Of a stretch of DNA of 64,000 nucleotides, positions 23,873 to 33,058 are shown one piece after another (position 1 is the stretch's first letter; each line of letters begins with the position of its first letter). Below the pieces are notes generated by a model. The model saw only the letters and a program-made list of their open reading frames with translations. It searched no databases and was not told where the DNA came from. The stretch is from Candidatus Moraniibacteriota bacterium. GTDB taxonomy: Bacteria; Patescibacteriota; Minisyncoccia; Moranbacterales; UBA1568. The stretch covers positions 468,466 through 532,465 of the forward strand of contig CP064974.1 in assembly GCA_016699385.1 (NCBI GenBank). Direction: 5' to 3'. The position numbers and the translations under genes are program-made.

Positions 23873-24502
23873 TCAAAAAATCTTCAAAGAATCTAGAAAT
23901 CTCTGAAAAACTGCTTCGGATTCTTTCGAAGTTGAAAACTGATATCCATCGAAAGTAATCCTCCGAATGTCATAATACCAATCTTTTTTATCAAGGAAAA
24001 TTATTGCCTCACCAGGAATAGGGCAATACCCTTCCCCAGCTCCACATGATTGCTTCTCCTTGCTAAGGAATATATCATTACTCCCGATGTGGATGCGTGA
24101 CCAGTCCTTCAAAAAAGATCTGTCGAGTGGCGCACCCCCTTCAGAAGAACTACCCGTAGGAGCTACATATACCTGAATGTCACCGTACGCCCTCTTCAAA
24201 TCATCTGTCTTTGCAACAAAAGAGACCATTGGGATATAATCCTTGTCTTTTACAGTGTAGACATTTGAAGGATACTGTACTTCGAAGCCGTATCGATTAC
24301 TCCTATATGTTTCCCAATCCGCGGAATCCGCTACCATTAGAACTCCTTCTGGGGCAGATACTGATTGAGATTGATCTTGAGATACCAGTTCCGAACGAAA
24401 AGAAGACTTTTTAGTATAAAGAAAAGCTAACCCAAGAATGGGAATGATTACCGCTCCTGCGATGCTAACGATAGTTGTCCTCTTTGACATAAAAACTGAC
24501 AT
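23873..24502 (-). CDS. hypothetical membrane-anchored/secreted protein
   Basis: 209 aa; N-terminal TM helix; no family recognized; lies immediately distal to the CRISPR array. Confidence 0.4.
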   Translation of the reverse strand: MSVFMSKRTTIVSIAGAVIIPILGLAFLYTKKSSFRSELVSQDQSQSVSAPEGVLMVADSADWETYRSNRYGFEVQYPSNVYTVKDKDYIPMVSFVAKTDDLKRAYGDIQVYVAPTGSSSEGGAPLDRSFLKDWSRIHIGSNDIFLSKEKQSCGAGEGYCPIPGEAIIFLDKKDWYYDIRRITFDGYQFSTSKESEAVFQRFLDSLKIF

Positions 24503-24954: not shown

Positions 24955-26599
24955 GAAATCGTGTTGTCAGATTGTGTAGGTCTTATTGCGTGTACGGCTA
25001 CACGGTAGTATTCGGATATCTACAAAAGTAGAAATTGTGTAGGTCTTATTGCGCCGAATACTCCGAAAGAAACTTTGAAATCTACAAAAGTAGAAATTGT
25101 GTAGGTCTTATTGCGCTCCGAACGGGGAACTACTACTTTTACATCTACAAAAGTAGAAATTGTGTAGGTCTTATTGCGGGTTCTGTGGATAATGTGGCAA
25201 CGGAATCTACAAAAGTAGAAATTGTGTAGGTCTTATTGCGAAGAGATGATATTCTTTGCTTTACTATCTACAAAAGTAGAAATTGTGTAGGTCTTATTGC
25301 GATACACCAAAGAAAATAACCAAACTAATCTACAAAAGTAGAAATTGTGTAGGTCTTATTGCGAACCAAGCAAAGAAACTTGAGAAGAATCTACAAAAGT
25401 AGAAATTGTGTAGGTCTTATTGCGGCGCGTGAATAACTCTCTCTATTAAATCTACAAAAGTAGAAATTGTGTAGGTCTTATTGCGATACGCGAGCATAAC
25501 AAAGCCTTCAATCTACAAAAGTAGAAATTGTGTAGGTCTTATTGCGGTCACCATTTTCAGTGCCGATTTTGATCTACAAAAGTAGAAATTGTGTAGGTCT
25601 TATTGCGAGGGAACACCCGGGCTTGTTTCCGAAATCTACAAAAGTAGAAATTGTGTAGGTCTTATTGCGTTCGATTTCTGGGAAGTTCTCACTGTTATCT
25701 ACAAAAGTAGAAATTGTGTAGGTCTTATTGCGAGGAGATGGATGGTGGTATGCTAGAATCTACAAAAGTAGAAATTGTGTAGGTCTTATTGCGTAAAAAT
25801 CCTTGATAGCAATAATGAAATCTACAAAAGTAGAAATTGTGTAGGTCTTATTGCGCAACTGGAATTAACCAGCATCGTCCCATCTACAAAAGTAGAAATT
25901 GTGTAGGTCTTATTGCGGTGAGGAATATGGATACAGTGATGGAATCTACAAAAGTAGAAATTGTGTAGGTCTTATTGCGGATCTTTGAGAAAAACGAACT
26001 CGTATATCTACAAAAGTAGAAATTGTGTAGGTCTTATTGCGGTGCGGTCATTGGGTACTGGATCAAAATCTACAAAAGTAGAAATTGTGTAGGTCTTATT
26101 GCGGCGTGTCGAACGAGAGAAGCAGGCTATCTACAAAAGTAGAAATTGTGTAGGTCTTATTGCGGTCTGCTTTCTTACTGCTTCGGCGAGGATCTACAAA
26201 AGTAGAAATTGTGTAGGTCTTATTGCGCGTCGAAGAAATAAAGAGCAGTCAAATCTACAAAAGTAGAAATTGTGTAGGTCTTATTGCGCCGATGTGGCTA
26301 AAGCCATATCGTTGTATCTACAAAAGTAGAAATTGTGTAGGTCTTATTGCGATGGATTCATCCAGCCCGTCGTCATATCTACAAAAGTAGAAATTGTGTA
26401 GGTCTTATTGCGATGATAACGCCTACCGAAGACGCACTATCTACAAAAGTAGAAATTGTGTAGGTCTTATTGCGATGTCCATGTAAACCTGACCACCCAT
26501 ATCTACAAAAGTAGAAATTGTGTAGGTCTTATTGCGAGTATAGATATTGGGTTGATAAGTCGAATCTACAAAAGTAGAAATTGTGTAGGTCTTATTGCG
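24955..26599 (-). CRISPR. type V-A CRISPR array: 26 identical 36-nt repeats plus 1 degenerate terminal repeat, spacers 25-27 nt
   Basis: Plus-strand repeat ATCTACAAAAGTAGAAATTGTGTAGGTCTTATTGCG at 25018, 25080, 25143 ... 26564 (period 61-63 nt). The reverse complement, CGCAAUAAGACCUACACAAUUUCUACUUUUGUAGAU, ends in the canonical Cas12a crRNA handle (UCUAC-UUUU-GUAGA stem-loop), so the array is transcribed on the minus strand from the cas2-proximal leader. The repeat at 24955-24990 keeps only the leader-proximal 20 nt (ATTGTGTAGGTCTTATTGCG). Confidence 0.95.
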
Positions 26600-26801
26600 A
26601 GCCATAAAGGCTTGGATAAGCCAAGAATATACAAATCCCGAAAAAATAGGGACGAACTCTTGGCTTATCCATGCAAAACCCAGATATTCAGGTCGGGGTT
26701 TTGCGTTTTTCTGAATACAGACGCAATAAAAAATATAAGGCCCATTTCAATTTCCACCTAAAAGGTGATTGAATTGTCAAGGTTCTTCTTGCGGGGAAAA
26801 G
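26600..26801 (-). promoter_or_regulatory. CRISPR leader (about 200 nt, AT-rich) with candidate -35 TTGACA
   Basis: Region between the cas2 stop and the first repeat. Minus-strand TTGACA at 26780..26775. No clean -10 identified. Confidence 0.5.
26609..26675. repeat. inverted repeat in CRISPR leader abutting the first repeat (two copies of palindromic CTTGG-ATAAG-CCAAG motif, 16/17 bp complementary, 32-nt spacer)
   Basis: GGCTTGGATAAGCCAAGA (26609-26626) versus TCTTGGCTTATCCATGC (26659-26675). Each arm is itself palindromic. The loop contains the small hairpin TCCC-GAAAAAATA-GGGA. Confidence 0.55.
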
Positions 26802-27092
26802 TCATGAGATCATGATAACCGTCTCTTCTTCACGTTTTGCATACCCGTAGCGCTTCACCTTCTTGGCGCATCCTTCGCACACCTGGAACACCACGATGCT
26901 ATCCGCTCCGGTAAACGTCTTCTTGTACTTCAATTCTATCTCAATCAGCACATTTTGCAAGACCCGATCGCTCTCGCGCAACTGGAATACGCTGTATTGG
27001 ATTCGCCTACCGTATTTCTCCAGAAACTTGGAAAAACGAGTGCGCGTTCGATTATCTTCAAAGTCGTAGGAAACTATTAGCATAAATATCAA
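26802..27092 (-). CDS. cas2: CRISPR-associated endoribonuclease Cas2
   Basis: 96 aa; MLIVSYDFEDNRTRTRFSKFLEKYGRRIQYSVFQ typical Cas2 N-terminus; ATGA overlap with cas1. Confidence 0.85.
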   Translation of the reverse strand: MIFMLIVSYDFEDNRTRTRFSKFLEKYGRRIQYSVFQLRESDRVLQNVLIEIELKYKKTFTGADSIVVFQVCEGCAKKVKRYGYAKREEETVIMIS

Positions 27093-28060
27093 CGGATGAT
27101 AAACGACTGAAAACTTTCTTCATCGTCATTCAATACTCGGTAATAATATCCTCGGACGAAATCGTATATTTCGTTCTTGTGTTTCAAAATTTCTTCGAGA
27201 AATATCTTCGTATATCGCGCGCCACTTTGATAGTTCAACTGATAATTTCCATTTTTTACGGAAAAGTCCTTTGAATCAAAACGGTTCAAAGTGTGAATCT
27301 TGAGAAGTGAACGATCAACGATGCACCGAAACGGCTCCATCATATCGCATGCAAGCGACTTACGTTGGAAAAACAACTGATGATACACGCCCTTATAGGT
27401 ATCAAATCCAAAGAGACGCAAGAGCGAATCAGTGAAATGAAAGAGGTAGGTATATCCCATATCGAGCAATATATTATTCTCATCCACTTTGCCACGTGGC
27501 ACTCGCCGATACCAACCAAGCGACCCGAAATACTCACGAAAATACATCCGCCCCACCGTCCCCTCTATACCGCGAAGCGTTGCCAAATCCTCTGCACTCG
27601 CTATTTTTTCTTCCCATTCGCGCTTCCGATCAAGTAGCGACTTCCCCGAGAGTGACTCCTTGCCAATCGAGCGAATCAATGCAATCTGATTTCTAATTTT
27701 GTTCGAAACAATCTTGCGAGAAATTTCCAGGCATGCATTCAAAGAAAGATTGTATTGTTTTTGTCGCAACAAATAATTTCCTTCGGCATACGGACAGACA
27801 GAGGCGTATGTTCGAAACGACCGGTCAAGCAGGAACAGTGATACGCCGTTCTTCGAACAATTCGCAACGAGCTTTGTCGTCAAAGTCGCCTCTCCGTGAA
27901 GAAATATAGCCACAAGCAACTGAAGTGGCACTTTTTCTTTCGTTCCCTCTTCATTCGCAATAACAATATTTTCATTTCGAAACGAAAGATCGCACTCACC
28001 GAGTGTTGCGGTACTGATAAAGGCGATCTGTTTTTTCTCGAAATCCGGAGCAGTCAGCAT
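27089..28060 (-). CDS. cas1: CRISPR-associated integrase Cas1
   Basis: 323 aa; Cas1 fold and length; positioned between cas4 and cas2 as in V-A loci. Confidence 0.85.
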   Translation of the reverse strand: MLTAPDFEKKQIAFISTATLGECDLSFRNENIVIANEEGTKEKVPLQLLVAIFLHGEATLTTKLVANCSKNGVSLFLLDRSFRTYASVCPYAEGNYLLRQKQYNLSLNACLEISRKIVSNKIRNQIALIRSIGKESLSGKSLLDRKREWEEKIASAEDLATLRGIEGTVGRMYFREYFGSLGWYRRVPRGKVDENNILLDMGYTYLFHFTDSLLRLFGFDTYKGVYHQLFFQRKSLACDMMEPFRCIVDRSLLKIHTLNRFDSKDFSVKNGNYQLNYQSGARYTKIFLEEILKHKNEIYDFVRGYYYRVLNDDEESFQSFIIR

Positions 28061-28075
28061 AGGGTATGAAGTCGA

Positions 28076-28651
28076 CTATGAATTTTCTTCCAAAACAACA
28101 CGAGGAGCATCACCACGACACAACGTCCGATAAATACACCCGGCACATTTCTTCTCGTCGGCTATCGGATGCGTCTTTGATATATCGAAAGTCCGAATTC
28201 GATCGATCAAACCGAGAAACGACTCCCAGTCCTCAGCAGAAATATCGACGGGATATTTCTTGTTATCCGAAAGCGAGTGCAACACCGCCTCCCGAACTTC
28301 GTATCCTATTTCTTCGAGACAGAGGATTTGCCCCAAGACTTGCCACTTGTACCCGGGATATACAAATCGAATCTTCGTCTTCCGCTCAATGAGCGTCTTT
28401 GTCTCCACATCGTATATATCAATCTTCCCGACCAACCCGTATTTCTCGGACGAGACGCTCATCCCCTGCCGATACCGACTCCGCGAAGAATACGCGCCCG
28501 CATCCGAAGCCGAATGCCGAAGTGTCCCCATCTTTTGCGGAGACGCTTTGTAGTGTCCTTCGCCAATCGCTTCATATACGCCATGAAAATACAGCGACCG
28601 CGGACAAAATGCAAAATCGTTGAGCGCTGTTATTGGAATTTCGGAAAACAT
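28076..28651 (-). CDS. cas4: CRISPR-associated exonuclease Cas4 (RecB-like nuclease with Fe-S cluster cysteines)
   Basis: 191 aa; N-terminal FAFCPRSLYF and C-terminal CAGCIYRTLC cysteines (Cx...CxxCxxxxxC cluster pattern) plus RecB-nuclease core (D...E.K). Confidence 0.85.
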   Translation of the reverse strand: MFSEIPITALNDFAFCPRSLYFHGVYEAIGEGHYKASPQKMGTLRHSASDAGAYSSRSRYRQGMSVSSEKYGLVGKIDIYDVETKTLIERKTKIRFVYPGYKWQVLGQILCLEEIGYEVREAVLHSLSDNKKYPVDISAEDWESFLGLIDRIRTFDISKTHPIADEKKCAGCIYRTLCRGDAPRVVLEENS

Positions 28652-31600
28652 TTATTTCTTTTCTTTCCATTTCAAATCCTTTTCGTTTTCCTCTATCCAT
28701 TTCCGCCAACTGCTCTCGCCAGAAAGCCACGCAGACCATTCCTCATCGGAAATATACGTTTTATATCCAAGACGAATATGCTCCGCCATAACGATTCCTT
28801 TACGCGCAATGTTGTACGCACCATTGCTATCGCCAGAACTCGGCAAAGCTAGCTTCTCATCCCTCTGCTCAGCATCCCAATACTTCCGCGAATCGAAATG
28901 CTCTCCGGTGTGCTCATTGCGAACTGGAGAAAGAAGAAAATCAGAATCGCGCTCATTTTCCTTTTCCCCAGTATTCCTGATCTGTTGGATGAGATCGATG
29001 CAATGGCGAAGCGACTCATATGCCGGGTATTCTGAAATTTTCACAAGTTCTCCGCCCCCCTTCATTTGTGTAAAAAGCGATCGATTCCTGTCTTTTTTGT
29101 CGAGGTTTGCAAAAAGTGAGTCAAGCATTTCGACGACATCCTCCTTTTCTACCTTCCACTCATTCTTGTCCGTTCCACGCTTCCCGCGAAAACGATCGAG
29201 ACTTTCGCCATTCTTTCCCGAGTAGAGTGTCCACGTTTTTCCATTTCGTATCTCCCTATTATTCTCTTTCTTTTTCCCCTTTTCTATTCGTACTTTTATT
29301 TTCTCAACATATGTAAATGCATAATCTTTCCCATCGAAGACGATATCCGAGAAAGTTTCGAGAATTTCTCTCTTGATACTTTCTTCCGAACCGCGCTTCA
29401 AATAAACTGTCTTGCGCCATCCGGTAAGCGGATCGGTTTGCGACGTATAATTGGCACGAGTATACAGCATGATGCCGAATTGCTTGGAGTTGATATCGCC
29501 GAAATTATTGACTGGTGGCGTCAATTGAAAGGCTTTTGTGACAGAGCCAATTTCACCAATTTTTGCAGACTTATCAACAAGAAAGTTTAATTTTTTCGCA
29601 AGTGCAAGTTCAAGCTTCTGATAAACCTGCTTTTCTATTTTCTGGCGCCCGCGCTTGAAACCAATATTCAAATCCTCCAACACAATAAGTGCGCCCTTTT
29701 CGACAGCAATATCAACAATTTTCCGAACAACCTGAGAAATATACCCCTCCTTCAAGTCCTTGATTGTCCCGATGGTCTTCCAATTTTTTCGTGCAAAATC
29801 CCGCTCACCAGCTCGCGCTTCAAGCAATGCATTGTAATCTTTTCCGCCAACAACATTAAAACTTCCTTGATCCAACAGTTCTCCTTTTTCACTTACAAGC
29901 GACCAATATGCCAAGTGCTTTTCCCCGCGGTCGATACCGAGGAAAATACATTGCGCTCCATCCCTAAGTTTTTCAGAGATTTCCCTATTGACAGCTCGAT
30001 TCTTCATACAAAAATTAAGCGTAATCGGAACATGAAAAAGAAATTTTTCTTTCGAAAATCGGAAGTTCTTGATAATGCTCTTCCCACTATTATCATCCGC
30101 TCTTTGCTGTTTCTCCTCAGGAAGCGCTGATCTGTAAAATACCTCAGCCTCTCCATTCAATTTCGGACGATTTTCGATATCACGAAACATCGCGTCCCAA
30201 TACATCGTGTGCAGATTATTTTTGTGCCCTTCTTTTTTTCCGCTATTTGAATCCTGATTGTGAATCTCAAAGAGATAGAGCCTTCCCTCGCTAACCCAAG
30301 AGTCAACAACAGTCTTATTTACGGAAACAAAAGAATTCTTATACCCTTGCTTCTCAACATCCAGATAAAATTGGCTAATATCAACATATTCTTCAGTCGG
30401 ACGAAATGAAAAGTCAAAACAATTCCACTCCTCATATTTTTGAAGTCCTGATTTATAGAAATCAATGATCTTTCCAAGGCTTTCTCTCGAGAATCCGTCA
30501 GAGCCTTTCTTGAAATCGCCATGATCATATATTTTTAGTATTTCATCTGTAGCACCGTATTTTTTTCGATTAGATTTCGGCAAAAGACACTTCGGAAGCA
30601 TCTTGTTCGGTCCAGGAAGAAGCTTGTACTCCATCTTTGAAAAAATTTCACCCTTTTCAACAACATACAACTTATTCTCTTTTTGCTTTTTGAAGAGAGA
30701 ATTATATCCTTTTTCTTTTCTCTTTGAGATAATACCAAGAAAATATTTTTCATCCCTATCTCGAAAGATGACACAGAGATTATCGGACTCTTTATTCATA
30801 TCCCACCCGCTAGCGAGCGTGCTTTGTCCAAAATTCAATTTCAACTTGTTTTTCTTTGCATCGTCTTGAGGCTTCTTGGTAAGGAAATTTCGTGTCGCGT
30901 CATAATATCGAAACCAATTCGTCTCATCTTTTTCCGAATCCAAAAATACTTTCAGATATTCGGCAAGAACGGAATCGAGAGCTTCGCCTTTTATCTTGCT
31001 AGGACGAACGACAAAGTATTTAATCATTTGCGTCGCCGAAAGCATCTCATCAAGCCACGACTTAATTGCTTCCTTACTCGTCTCACTTGTGTACTCCGAA
31101 AGATGCGCGATATTTCCCGATTCACGCACAAACGACTCTACATGCTCTCCAATGTCCGACAGAATCATTTCCAAAAGCGCCCGCGACGGCTTCTGTGCAT
31201 TTTGCACAATCGACGAGTATCGCTCATTTCTTTTCTTTCGTCGTTCACATTGTTCGTAGTCGATATCTTCCTTCCGTTCGCATTCAATTGTTTCCGTAAG
31301 ACTTTCCTTAAAGAATACGCCCGAATCGCGCCAATGCCATTCTTCTTCAAGAGATTCCGGCTTAGAATCGAGAACTGTGAAGAAATCTTCAAGATCAATA
31401 GCTTCGGGAATCCTCACATCTTCTTGACTTCCTTTTACTGAATCTTGAAATACCTTTGCCGTTTTAAGTCTATCTTTCAAGCTGTGCCAATCCGAAAAGT
31501 ACCGATTTGATATCGTATTCATTGCTGCTTTCGACCAATAGAAACCAGTGAAGTTCTCTCGTGATCGAATATACGCAATTAAGTCTGGCAGTGAGCCAAG

Positions 31601-32791
31601 AGAAGCGACATCTATATCAGATACATCCCCACGGTCAGATGCTCGAAAATACCTCCCTCCAGCTTCCGATACATCATGAAGCAACTCTTCCAAAGAATAA
31701 AATTTCTTCTTCGATTGATTCGCTCGTTTCTTTTCGGCCTCGGATTTCTTCTCGTCTGTCAATTCGAAGAACAGAGCATCTCGCCTTCCACATCCAATCT
31801 GCCTGTAAAGCGTTTTGAAAAATTTGAGCTTCTCGCTTTTTTCACCATGAGCTTGATTGTAACGGTTTATAAGGAAATTTGCATTTCCGACTGCCTCGTT
31901 ATACGATTCTATCTCTGTTTGGGACAGACACTCAGTGAAGTACTCGATACGAAAAAGATTCGGATCAATCGAAATACACGGTGTTTCTTTCTTGTCCTTT
32001 CCCTTCATGACAAGCGGGTCTCCAAGCTTTCTTAAGGATTCAAAAATATCTTCATACACTCTCTGTCTCCCTCGAAATATGAGAACATTGTCGCAAAATA
32101 TTGGAAGATTCTCATGTACAATACGCGTGGCGACTGCCGTAGCCTTCTCGTCCCTTGTTACATAATAATTTTCCCGATTTTGGTTGAACCCAGAAAAATA
32201 AGTAAAAAATCCTTCGAAGATATTCAGATACTTATGAATTTCATCCAGTGAAAGAATATCGGAAAAACGATCAGCATTCTTTCGGATATATTCCAAAATT
32301 CCAACTTCAGTAAGAATTTTGAAACCACTCCCACTAAATATTTCCTTTCCTTTTTCTGTTTTCCCTGCCACATTTTTCCAGGATTCAGCGACTTTTATAT
32401 ATGCATCACCAAAGGCACTTCGCATTTTTTTCTCCTCAACCTCGAAAGCTTTCTCTTTTATATCGCTCTTCCTTTCGTATAAATCCAGATAAGAAGAAAA
32501 TTTTATACTTTTGACAGATTCAGACTCAAGACTTTCAGTTATAAAGTCCTCATGAATTTTATCGAATATTGGCTTGAGTGCCTGATAGGCATCCTCGATA
32601 TTTTGATCCGAAAGAAACGTGCGTAGATTTTCATCATACCCGAATTGCGTCCGCATATTCTCAAGAGTCTTCCCTATTGGCTTCAATTCAAACCGCAATG
32701 TTTTTGACAATGAATACTTCCCAGTAAAATCATCAAAAATGCCCTTCCTGTTTTCTCCATTCATAGGAAAAATGTGAAACGATTTATACAA
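28652..32791 (-). CDS. cas12a: type V-A CRISPR effector Cas12a (Cpf1)
   Basis: 1379-aa ORF. N-terminal [19 protein letters not shown], then [12 protein letters not shown] and [12 protein letters not shown]. RuvC-I [12 protein letters not shown], RuvC-II [26 protein letters not shown], RuvC-III [13 protein letters not shown]. All are co-linear with FnCas12a and Parcubacteria PbCpf1. ORF-track start 32791 is a TTG; the likely true start is ATG at 32764 ([20 protein letters not shown]). Confidence 0.95.
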   Translation of the reverse strand: [1379 protein letters not shown]

Positions 32792-32812
32792 TAAAAAATA
32801 CGAATTTCCCGC

Positions 32813-32901
32813 AAAAAAGCCGAAAAGGGACAGCGGCCGTCGCCCAGCAGAGCATCATGCCAAACGGCAATGTGTTGCCAGAACCGCTATCCCTTTTCGG
32901 C
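32813..32901 (-). promoter_or_regulatory. large stem-loop (18-bp stem) plus U-tract immediately upstream of cas12a start: putative attenuator/terminator-like leader element
   Basis: Arms 32819-32836 (GCCGAAAAGGGACAGCGG) and 32884-32901 (CCGCTATCCCTTTTCGGC). The single mismatch is C.A on the plus strand but a U.G wobble on the minus (cas12a-sense) strand. The 47-nt loop has an inner hairpin GGCAA-TGTG-TTGCC. On the minus strand a T6 run (32813-32818) follows, 22 nt before the cas12a start. Confidence 0.45.
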
Positions 32902-32980
32902 TTGAATACAAATTCAACCAGGAGGATTTCGGCATGATACTGCAAAACTGAGCGACACCCGCATTCTACACGACCGCAAT

Positions 32981-32994
32981 ATCTTGCGCAAGAT
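32981..32994. promoter_or_regulatory. perfect 14-bp palindrome ATCTTGCGCAAGAT upstream of cas12a (candidate operator)
   Basis: Exact self-complementary 14-mer in the mltG-cas12a intergenic region. Confidence 0.3.
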
Positions 32995-33019
32995 GCCAAA
33001 CTGACAGCAACTTCCGTCC

Positions 33020-33058
33020 CCACAAAAAAACTCCCCCTGCAAAAATGAGAGGGGAGTT
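33020..33058 (-). terminator. rho-independent terminator downstream of mltG
   Basis: Minus strand: AACTCCCC / GGGGAGTT 8-bp GC-rich stem (33029-33058) followed by TTTTTTT; 22 nt after the mltG stop. Confidence 0.6.

Follow-up and report, generated by a model that had tools for sequence, protein, structure and literature searches.

A Conserved Leader RNA with Two Competing Folds, Probably a Transcription Attenuator, Upstream of cas12a in a Type V-A CRISPR-Cas Locus of Candidatus Moraniibacteriota

A 64-kb stretch of the Candidatus Moraniibacteriota contig CP064974.1 (64,000 nucleotides [nt], analyzed as a whole and hereafter called the window) holds a complete canonical type V-A CRISPR-Cas unit of this member of the candidate phyla radiation (CPR/Patescibacteria). 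Its effector gene, cas12a (cpf1), is encoded on the minus strand and is preceded by a conserved, structured leader RNA for which comparison of 18 sequences supports two mutually exclusive folds, one of them an intrinsic terminator. We posit that this leader is a riboswitch-like transcription attenuator that probably gates transcription of cas12a. To the explanation as a whole, which combines a canonical V-A unit, a Cas12a that starts at an ATG and has an intact active site, and an attenuator leader, we assign a probability of roughly 0.62. A sequence-only reading of the cas12a open reading frame (ORF) had identified the nuclease and commented on its start codon, its catalytic residues, and its nearest relative; its observations are partly confirmed and its interpretation partly supported by the present analysis. 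Two features described here go beyond it: the absence of a histidine of the ribonuclease (RNase) site for precursor CRISPR RNA (pre-crRNA) and the leader RNA itself, which lies upstream of the ORF that had been considered.

Results and Discussion

A Conserved Leader RNA Precedes cas12a

The leader and its parts, named in the order in which they are transcribed, are the following.

32813..32957, minus strand: conserved cas12a leader RNA, ~145 nt, delimited by sequence identity, covariance model (CM) matches, and covariation
32957-32948, minus strand: leader region 1, 5' strand of helix P1
32901-32884, minus strand: 5' arm of the leader terminator
32872-32856, minus strand: P3 hairpin of the leader
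32850-32839, minus strand: leader region 3, the shared strand
32838-32819, minus strand: 3' arm of the leader terminator
32818-32813, minus strand: U-run

The consensus of the leader is 5'-UGUCGCCCAA-(variable hairpin)-GGGCGACGGUUCCAAUAGCGCUUAACCGUUUGGUAAGCAUAUCUGUUGGGCGACAACCGUCGUCC-U6, and in other loci the element measures 106-167 nt and contains a variable insert. In the locus L002, whose Cas12a is 65% identical to that of the window, a block of 93 nt is 100% identical to window positions 32906-32814, and homology stops exactly after the U-run. In L003, L083, and L085, whose Cas12a is 58% identical, 144 nt are shared with the window leader at 96.5%, while the DNA of cas4, cas1, cas2, and cas12a is only ~72% identical. 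An exact 22-mer scan of metagenomes returned four contigs with the leader word, and the N-terminus of a cas12a gene was confirmed just downstream in three of them; two of the four, L082 and L084, carry a fourth variant of the leader sequence. The contig of L083 ends 27 nt into the cas12a coding sequence and has the same leader variant as L003 and L085.

The genes upstream of the leader are yceG, UPF0047, lepA, and murJ in the window, a PRiA4_ORF3-like gene, macB/ftsX, and dsbD in L003, and a radical SAM gene in L084. Because the upstream genes differ between contexts, we conclude that the leader block travels with the cas cassette. The possibility that its identity reflects the conserved flank of a single species was considered and ruled out, given that the upstream genes differ in all three contexts.

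A CM built from three leader variants (R1) found 10 further loci with E values of 2e-5 to 0.24 in the 1.1 Mb searched, as well as weaker matches in L039 and L017 at E ~2; all R1 matches lie on the sense strand, no farther than 200 nt from cas12a on its upstream side. The R1 loci were recovered at 80-132 bits with a second model (R2), and elsewhere in the searched loci R2 returned nothing better than E = 0.65, save weak reverse-strand echoes of the palindrome. With three more members taken from contigs of other homologs, the leader is represented by 18 distinct sequences or loci, whose Cas12a proteins are 32-65% identical to that of the window and whose metagenome-assembled genomes bear the labels Ryan-, Magasanik-, Taylor-, and Paceibacteria, among others. 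R2 did not detect the leader in Gracilibacteria- and Peregrinibacteria-type loci, including the locus of PeCpf1. The locus of PbCpf1 has a reduced leader remnant, UGUCGAAUAU ... AUAUUGGGCGACAACCGUCGUCCUUUUUU, which scores 23.6 bits, occupies positions 1408-1485 of a groundwater metagenome contig (L097), and ends 23 nt before the ATG. This remnant overlaps the 3' end of an ORF of 103 amino acids (aa) that has no Pfam match.

Rfam 15 contains no family for the leader, either in a search of the whole window at the gathering threshold or in a search of the three variants at E<=10, where the matches were chance-level microRNAs and small RNAs (sRNAs) only. The leader motif was also not found in the viral contigs of IMG/VR. 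A targeted, but not exhaustive, literature search revealed no description of such a leader and no riboswitch-type control of a CRISPR effector, and the leader is apparently undescribed. The conservation of a near-invariant stretch of ~28 nt, GGUUCCAAUAGCGCUUAACCGUUUGGUAAG, exceeds what base pairing needs, which suggests that this stretch may be a specific binding site.

Two Predicted Folds of the Leader Exclude Each Other

In the terminator fold, GGGCGACGG pairs with CCGUCGUCC and UCCAAUAG pairs with CUAUUGGG, with an apical hairpin that has a GUUU loop, and the U-run follows. When this fold is laid over an alignment of the 18 leader sequences (A8), 97.2% of the cells are paired and changes on both sides of the pair are found at 15 of the 24 pairs. 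None of 500 shuffles reaches the observed value, slid controls give 27-56%, and all 18 sequences have the U-run. We conclude that the long hairpin is a conserved terminator. A compact 3:4 hairpin (GGGCGAC-AACC-GUCGUCC) was considered as the selected terminator and rejected: inspection of A8 by eye shows that it is broken in L053 and L008, while the 2:4 pairing is kept in the counts.

In the alternative fold, the 5' segment UGUCGCCCAA (UGUCGC...) pairs with UUGGGCGACA to form helix P1, whose partner strand, CUGGGCGAC, is the same UUGGG strand that is used by the terminator. P1 (A8 columns 2-10 with 63-71) overlaps the terminator fold in columns 61-67, with the middle helix of the terminator in columns 63-67. 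Compensatory changes are present at five of the nine core pairs of P1 (5/68, 7/66, 8/65, 9/64, and 10/63 in A8 columns), and these arose in different lineages, namely L008 (G-C to U-A), L053 (three positions), L084, and the window type; in L093, a U-A pair is swapped to A-U at the closing pair of P1, just outside the core.

Because the gap between the 3' strand of P1 and the 3' arm of the terminator is 1-2 nt, the two helices exclude each other; based on the geometry of pseudoknot loops, they could not coexist as a pseudoknot. When P1 is enforced in folding, 16 of 18 sequences pair 4 or more of the 9 nt of GGGCGACGG with a segment farther upstream; the 3' arm of the terminator is then single-stranded in 15 of the 18 sequences, and in the remaining three most of it (6 of 9 nt) is. 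The two states have almost the same energy in the window copy (-58.8 vs -57.6 kcal/mol). The folds contain many G-U pairs, and CM scores on the reverse strand are far lower (29 vs 132 bits), so we assign the structure to the sense strand of cas12a and regard it as an RNA structure.

A Candidate Promoter at a Fixed Distance from the Leader

A candidate promoter lies immediately upstream of the leader.

32963..32991, minus strand: sigma-70-like leader promoter, with a -35 element TTGCGC (32991-32986), a 17-nt spacer, and a -10 element TAGAAT (32968-32963)

The -10 element of the window ends 5 nt before UGUCGC, and exactly the same offset is found in 16 of 18 loci. The -35 and -10 elements match the consensus at 8 or more of 12 positions in 14 of 18 loci, compared with 6.8% of random positions. 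A sigma-70 consensus scan of the region listed no site at the leader or at the start of cas12a, and the promoter call rests on comparative geometry across loci.

In 7 of 17 loci the distance from the U-run to the ATG of cas12a is 18-31 nt, and in one of the loci, L049, AGGAG is found there. A gap of 18-31 nt is too short to accommodate a promoter of its own for cas12a, so in these seven loci its transcription has to begin at the leader promoter and cross the terminator. At its other end, the leader promoter begins a new transcription unit, because yceG has its own short intrinsic terminator (~33024-33056, minus strand), composed of CUCCCC...GGGGAG and then U7 and situated right after its stop codon. 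Taken together, a promoter and transcription through the leader give the architecture of a transcription attenuator or of the expression platform of a riboswitch.

In four window-type loci, a -10-like hexamer, [T/C]ATAA[A/T/C], is found 17-20 nt before the ATG, although the sequence around it has otherwise diverged, and GCGUAUG at the start is common to three of the four; the loci are the window (interval 32765-32812, minus strand), L002, L003, and L084. This hexamer could be a second promoter or a signal for translation initiation in mRNAs that have no Shine-Dalgarno sequence.

A Model for the Leader

Based on these folds, we hypothesize that the terminator would stop RNA polymerase ~50 nt before the cas12a ATG, whereas P1 would take the shared strand out of the terminator and the upstream segment would pair with the 5' arm of the terminator, which would allow read-through. 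Candidates for the effector that would shift the equilibrium include a small molecule, Cas12a itself, and other factors. Control by a leader peptide is improbable, as transcription is predicted to begin right at the first base-paired segment.

Terminator/anti-terminator expression platforms are found in riboswitches such as the adenine-responsive "ON" switches of the pbuE type. Like these, the leader is promoter-proximal and located at the 5' end of the transcript, and an intrinsic terminator makes use of the 3' strand of its P1-type helix; as in riboswitch expression platforms, covariation maintains both folds. The leader differs from them in that it matches no known aptamer class in Rfam 15 and in that the gene regulated would be a CRISPR effector.

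Cas12a Is a Canonical Type V-A Effector

The coding sequence and the mechanical start of the ORF are as follows.

28652..32764, minus strand: cas12a (cpf1) coding sequence from the ATG, 1370 aa plus stop, supported by alignments to Pfam, NCBIfam, and the Protein Data Bank (PDB)
32789..32791, minus strand: TTG at which the ORF starts mechanically; not a start codon but part of the 5' untranslated region, 22 nt past the U-run

The ORF at 28652..32791 (minus strand) is real and comprises 1379 codons counted from the TTG, as given by the ORF list and the sequence. Its product matches the Pfam families REC1, Cpf1_PI-like, and RuvC_1, all above their gathering scores, with no HNH domain among the Pfam matches, and it scores 700.1 bits against the NCBIfam equivalog TIGR04330 cas_Cpf1 (cutoff 300). 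The solved structures that match best are ReChb (8QWD), a reconstructed ancestor, at E 1.3e-163 and FnCas12a at E 6e-147. It is nearly certain that the gene is an ordinary Cas12a of type V-A translated from the ATG.

All motifs quoted in the sequence-only reading are present in the product. In the numbering from the ATG, IDRGE is found at 944, LEDLN at 1029, and DSNGAY at 1312, and the longer quoted segments of 16, 23, and 10 residues are located at 208, 1096, and 1314, respectively. A HMMER alignment to FnCas12a chains with native numbering places D945, E1030, and D1312 on the RuvC triad of FnCas12a (D917, E1006, and D1255), so the triad is intact as had been claimed; the numbering of FnCas12a was verified on the E1006Q mutant chains 6I1L and 6GTC. 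In the same way, R1263 aligns with the Nuc arginine R1218 of FnCas12a. These four residues (D945, E1030, D1312, and R1263) are invariant in a family alignment of 34 sequences, in which the relatives are 47-66% identical. The lysines with which FnCas12a reads the protospacer-adjacent motif (PAM), K613, K667, and K671, are also kept, within DMNKES and GPNKMLPK. Given the conservation of the catalytic residues and of the PAM lysines, an active DNase with a T-rich PAM is a reasonable prediction, and the earlier prediction of an active nuclease from the intact RuvC triad is supported at that level.

Our search for targets of the array yielded no protospacers above chance, either when the spacers were compared with the window and ~100 loci or when the array was compared by blastn with INPHARED, and no protospacer was found for spacers 1-4 as exact 22-mers in IMG/VR.

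In contrast to the DNase site, the site for processing of pre-crRNA is not fully retained. In FnCas12a, the RNase site in the WED domain is said to consist of H843, K852, and K869, in work attributed to Fonfara in 2016 and Swarts in 2017. In the window Cas12a, where the site corresponds to residues ~876-899, the counterparts of K869 and F873 are K899 and F903; no residue aligns with H843, there is no histidine between FYRS and IIKNFRF, and the region of K852 is deleted or unalignable. The closest homologs (among the best 70 of the 119 aligned) do not have the canonical (I/V)xH(K/P)A motif, and neither do PeCpf1 and many Patescibacteria Cas12a loci, whereas it is retained by Cas12a of the Bacteroidales, Leptospira, and Francisella types. 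The missing histidine is a catalytic detail that has no bearing on membership in the Cas12a family.

Relatives of the Window Cas12a

The 1370-aa product is 100% identical over its full length to GenBank QQR77962.1, annotated as type V CRISPR-associated protein Cas12a/Cpf1 of Candidatus Moraniibacteriota bacterium and encoded on a contig of 1,111,322 bp. There is no difference between the two at the protein level, and the entry is an automatic annotation for which we found no biochemical characterization. A variant in a Logan assembly differs by 18 substitutions, and a partial Moraniibacteriota protein is 88% identical. Other full-length relatives are at most 65% identical, with the best uncharacterized ones at 55-65% and the best among one genome per GTDB species at 58%; the search of IMG/VR for relatives returned two short fragments only. 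The suggestion of novelty therefore stands in the sense that identity to any characterized Cas12a is <90%, but it falls in the sense that the very same protein is already deposited and correctly named. The Cas12a protein itself is of low novelty and at most one more diverged ortholog.

The sequence-only reading had placed the protein closest to PbCpf1, and the alignments do not agree with this placement. The window Cas12a is 53% identical to PeCpf1 (685 of 1292 aligned residues; sequence taken from its own contig, GW2011_GWA2_33_10, L038), compared with 29% to PbCpf1 (431 of 1466 columns). PeCpf1, from Peregrinibacteria bacterium GW2011_GWA2_33_10, is reportedly one of the 16 Cpf1 proteins in the original survey. 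It shares with the window protein the overall architecture, the motifs IDRGE, LEDLN, and D(S/A)NGA, and the His-less, lysine-rich segment before IIKNxRF; it differs in two insertions of 83 and 30 alignment columns and in that the leader element is not detectable in its locus (L038) with R2. For PbCpf1, a query sequence taken to be that of this protein matched a 1352-aa database protein (P0121) at 99%. P0121 shares a cluster of at least 90% identity with KKT48220.1 (UW39_C0001G0044, Parcubacteria group bacterium), which we take to be the accession of PbCpf1 (Parcubacteria bacterium GW2011_GWC2_44_17). PbCpf1 is among the more distant relatives, and the segments it shares with the window Cas12a, such as TAVATRI and YTSxTDPxTG, are family-wide motifs.

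FnCas12a and ReChb (5NG6, 5MGA, and 8QWD) align end to end with the window Cas12a, and the RuvC triad, the Nuc arginine, K613/K667/K671, K869, and F873 are all kept among them. The window protein differs from both in a longer REC2 and in the replacement of the segment that contains H843 and K852 by a shorter, His-less stretch.

Translation Starts at the ATG

Both candidate starts named in the sequence-only reading, the TTG at 32791 and the in-frame ATG at 32764, nine codons downstream, are present, and the comparison bears out its preference for the ATG and a product of ~1370 aa. The window, L003 (Cas12a 58% identical), and L002 (Cas12a 65% identical) all have ATG-AAT at the aligned position. 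An in-frame TAA lies seven codons upstream of the ATG in L002, with no start codon after it, and in L003 an in-frame stop six codons upstream leaves a TTG two codons before the ATG as the single remaining candidate. Among 104 full-length homologs, the SKTLRFEL segment begins at a median residue of 17.5 and a mode of 20; the mode is the value given by the ATG, while the TTG gives 29. Two independent gene calls, in the Logan assembly and in GenBank (QQR77962.1), use the ATG. From these comparisons we take the translation start to be the ATG at 32764, with a predicted product of 1370 aa.

Translation from the TTG, which would yield a protein of 1379 aa with the N-terminal extension MYKSFHIFP, is very unlikely. 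It would use the longest ORF, a Shine-Dalgarno sequence is absent at both candidate starts and does not separate them, and one homolog, P0002, has an N-terminal lead of like length, though unrelated in sequence. Conservation of MYKSFHIFP had been proposed as a check on the start, and none of the 119 homologs has such an N-terminus; in-frame stops prevent L002 and L003, which are the nearest distinct loci, from encoding the extension, and both the aligned ATG-AAT of the three loci and the two gene calls favor the ATG.

The Type V-A Locus

The gene order on the minus strand is cas12a, cas4, cas1, cas2, an array leader of ~200 nt, and the repeats.

28076..28651, minus strand: cas4 (type V), 191 aa, abutting the cas12a stop; Pfam Cas_Cas4, NCBIfam cas4_PREFRAN 174.6 bits (cutoff 70)
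27089..28060, minus strand: cas1 (type V), 323 aa; Pfam Cas_Cas1, NCBIfam cas1_PREFRAN 314.7 bits (cutoff 300)
26802..27092, minus strand: cas2, 96 aa, with a 4-nt overlap onto the end of cas1; Pfam CRISPR_Cas2, NCBIfam cas2
24971..26599, minus strand: CRISPR array of 26 identical 36-nt repeats (26599-25018) and 26 spacers of 25-27 nt
24971..24990, minus strand: degenerate terminal repeat, leader-distal, of which only the 5' 20 nt (CGCAATAAGACCTACACAAT) are kept and the handle stem-loop is lost

In crRNA sense, the repeat reads CGCAATAAGACCTACACAATTTCTACTTTTGTAGAT (also given as CGCAAUAAGACCUACACAAUUUCUACUUUUGUAGAU) in 26 copies. Each repeat terminates in AAUUUCUACUUUUGUAGAU, the canonical crRNA handle of Cas12a, in agreement with the V-A pattern AAUUUCUACU(N3-5)GUAGAU at the repeat end. 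No copy of the handle was found outside the array in the 64-kb window with up to three mismatches, and no tracrRNA-like (trans-activating crRNA-like) or anti-repeat partner was seen in the window. Old ends of arrays typically show such a loss of the handle in the terminal repeat. The array leader, which separates cas2 from the first repeat (26600-26801, minus strand), contains a long inverted repeat, GGATAAGCCAAGA ... TCTTGGCTTATCC, just before the first repeat. A 209-aa ORF directly past the end of the array (23873-24502, minus strand) has no match in Pfam or NCBIfam.

Following established Cas12a biology, crRNAs with a 19-nt handle would guide Cas12a to targets with a T-rich PAM, and the single RuvC site would then cut both DNA strands. 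The G+C content of cas12a is 40.4%, compared with 45.7% across the 64-kb window; this low value and the differing flanking genes fit horizontal movement of the whole unit, composed of the leader, the cas genes, and the array.

Alternative Explanations for the Leader

Elements that resemble crRNAs have been described upstream of cas12a elsewhere. Standalone repeat-like units (SRUs) adjoin cas12a in ~34% of V-A loci (bioRxiv 10.1101/2023.03.03.530964), and CreR-type autorepression has been reported for V-A systems (bioRxiv 10.1101/2023.03.10.532045). SRU and CreR elements lie, like the leader, immediately upstream of cas12a; they show conservation within clades, and a role in regulating the effector has been proposed for them. 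They derive from the CRISPR repeat, whereas the leader neither resembles nor complements the repeat and does have a terminator/anti-terminator switch. It is thus very improbable that the leader is a standalone repeat unit, a CreR, or a tracrRNA of this kind, in spite of its occurring in the same place. Local alignment of the leader to the repeat of its own locus, in either sense, gives scores at the level of shuffled sequences (10 loci). The complete TCTAC...GTAGA handle stem is found in none of the 18 leaders, two of which carry one half-site each and none both, and the window has no extra copy of the handle within three mismatches. The shuffled-level alignments and the lack of an extra handle copy rule out a repeat-derived SRU or CreR, and a tracrRNA or anti-repeat role was rejected because RNAduplex pairing with the locus's own repeat is no better than that of shuffles (10 loci). 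The same lack of complementarity to the repeat (z >= -0.4 in 10 loci) speaks against the idea that the element is an independent sRNA gene acting in trans, either as a scoutRNA-like helper of crRNA maturation or as a regulator, rather than a leader in cis. We consider such an sRNA unlikely but worth weighing: the element has its own promoter and a U-run terminator, it is conserved far above the cas genes, the closest Cas12a homologs have no equivalent of Fn H843, and window-type loci have the -10-like hexamer between the element and the ATG. Yet 7 of 17 loci have only 18-31 nt between the U-run and the ATG and no other obvious promoter for cas12a, a plain sRNA has no need of a conserved helix (P1) that destroys its terminator, and the group of His-less Cas12a proteins is much wider than the set of loci that bear the element.

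The element sits where a cas cassette that moves horizontally begins on its 5' side, and its long GC-rich hairpin lies between an A-tract and a U-run, as would also be expected of a constitutive, partly bidirectional intrinsic terminator or insulator against upstream transcription, in which the second fold is incidental. This is, in our judgment, rather unlikely, as terminators do not normally keep 96-100% identity or a near-invariant loop region of 28 nt across loci whose proteins are 30-65% identical, a dedicated promoter fires into the element at a fixed 5-nt offset, the 5' UGUCGCC covaries with the internal strand (e.g., in L008, L053, L084, and L093), and yceG in the window already has its own terminator at ~33056-33024. 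The conservation might instead be attributed to a small protein encoded by a frame that overlaps the leader.

32784..33023, minus strand: 79-aa ORF with a GTG start, overlapping the leader; very probably spurious

The GTG frame is open across the element and is called as a gene on a near-identical Logan contig (L001). Even so, a coding explanation is hardly credible: the ORF has no match in Pfam or NCBIfam, indels of +1 and -2 inside the conserved block of L084 break the common frame, substitutions track base pairing and not codon positions, and the element varies from 106 to 167 nt with its variable insert in other loci.

We therefore favor the transcription attenuator, for which several points nevertheless weigh on the other side. 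This reading of the leader derives from sequence comparison and predicted folding, and no aptamer class in Rfam 15 matches the leader. The P1 state is the more stable one at equilibrium in 16 of 18 sequences, so that the folding does not tell which state is the default or in which direction regulation would run. Four of the 18 sequences are of the window type and share inherited changes, and the count of compensatory cells consequently overstates the number of independent events. In window-type loci, the -10-like hexamer before the ATG makes a second promoter possible. The loci were gathered via cas12a, and the statement that the element occurs only upstream of cas12a holds within those flanks and one exact-word metagenome scan. 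As for the remainder of the explanation, the PAM and interference rest on inference, the protospacer searches of the window, the loci, IMG/VR, and INPHARED being empty, and maturation of crRNA may not follow the mechanism of FnCas12a, as the RNase histidine is missing.

Implications

To our knowledge, how the level of class 2 effectors is set is largely unknown beyond crRNA-like autorepressors. More tentatively than the attenuator itself, we suggest that the leader might represent a new class of RNA switch that responds to a ligand or a protein, such as an orphan riboswitch or an attenuator responsive to Cas12a or crRNA, and might turn transcription of this class 2 effector on or off in CPR bacteria; cas12a would then be under riboswitch-type control for the first time. 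More boldly still, the leader might be functionally tied to the loss of the RNase histidine, for example if it were to sense unprocessed pre-crRNA or apo-Cas12a. Independently of the leader, a His-less site across this group of enzymes poses a testable question, that of the route by which their crRNAs mature.

If the attenuator reading is true, a terminator/anti-terminator switch before cas12a would be a separate control point based on RNA structure, found in CPR bacteria, a group in which regulation has hardly been explored. The leader is short, sharply bounded, and directly testable, and if its effector proves to be a metabolite or the nuclease itself, it could also find use as a small natural element for controlling the expression of Cas12a.

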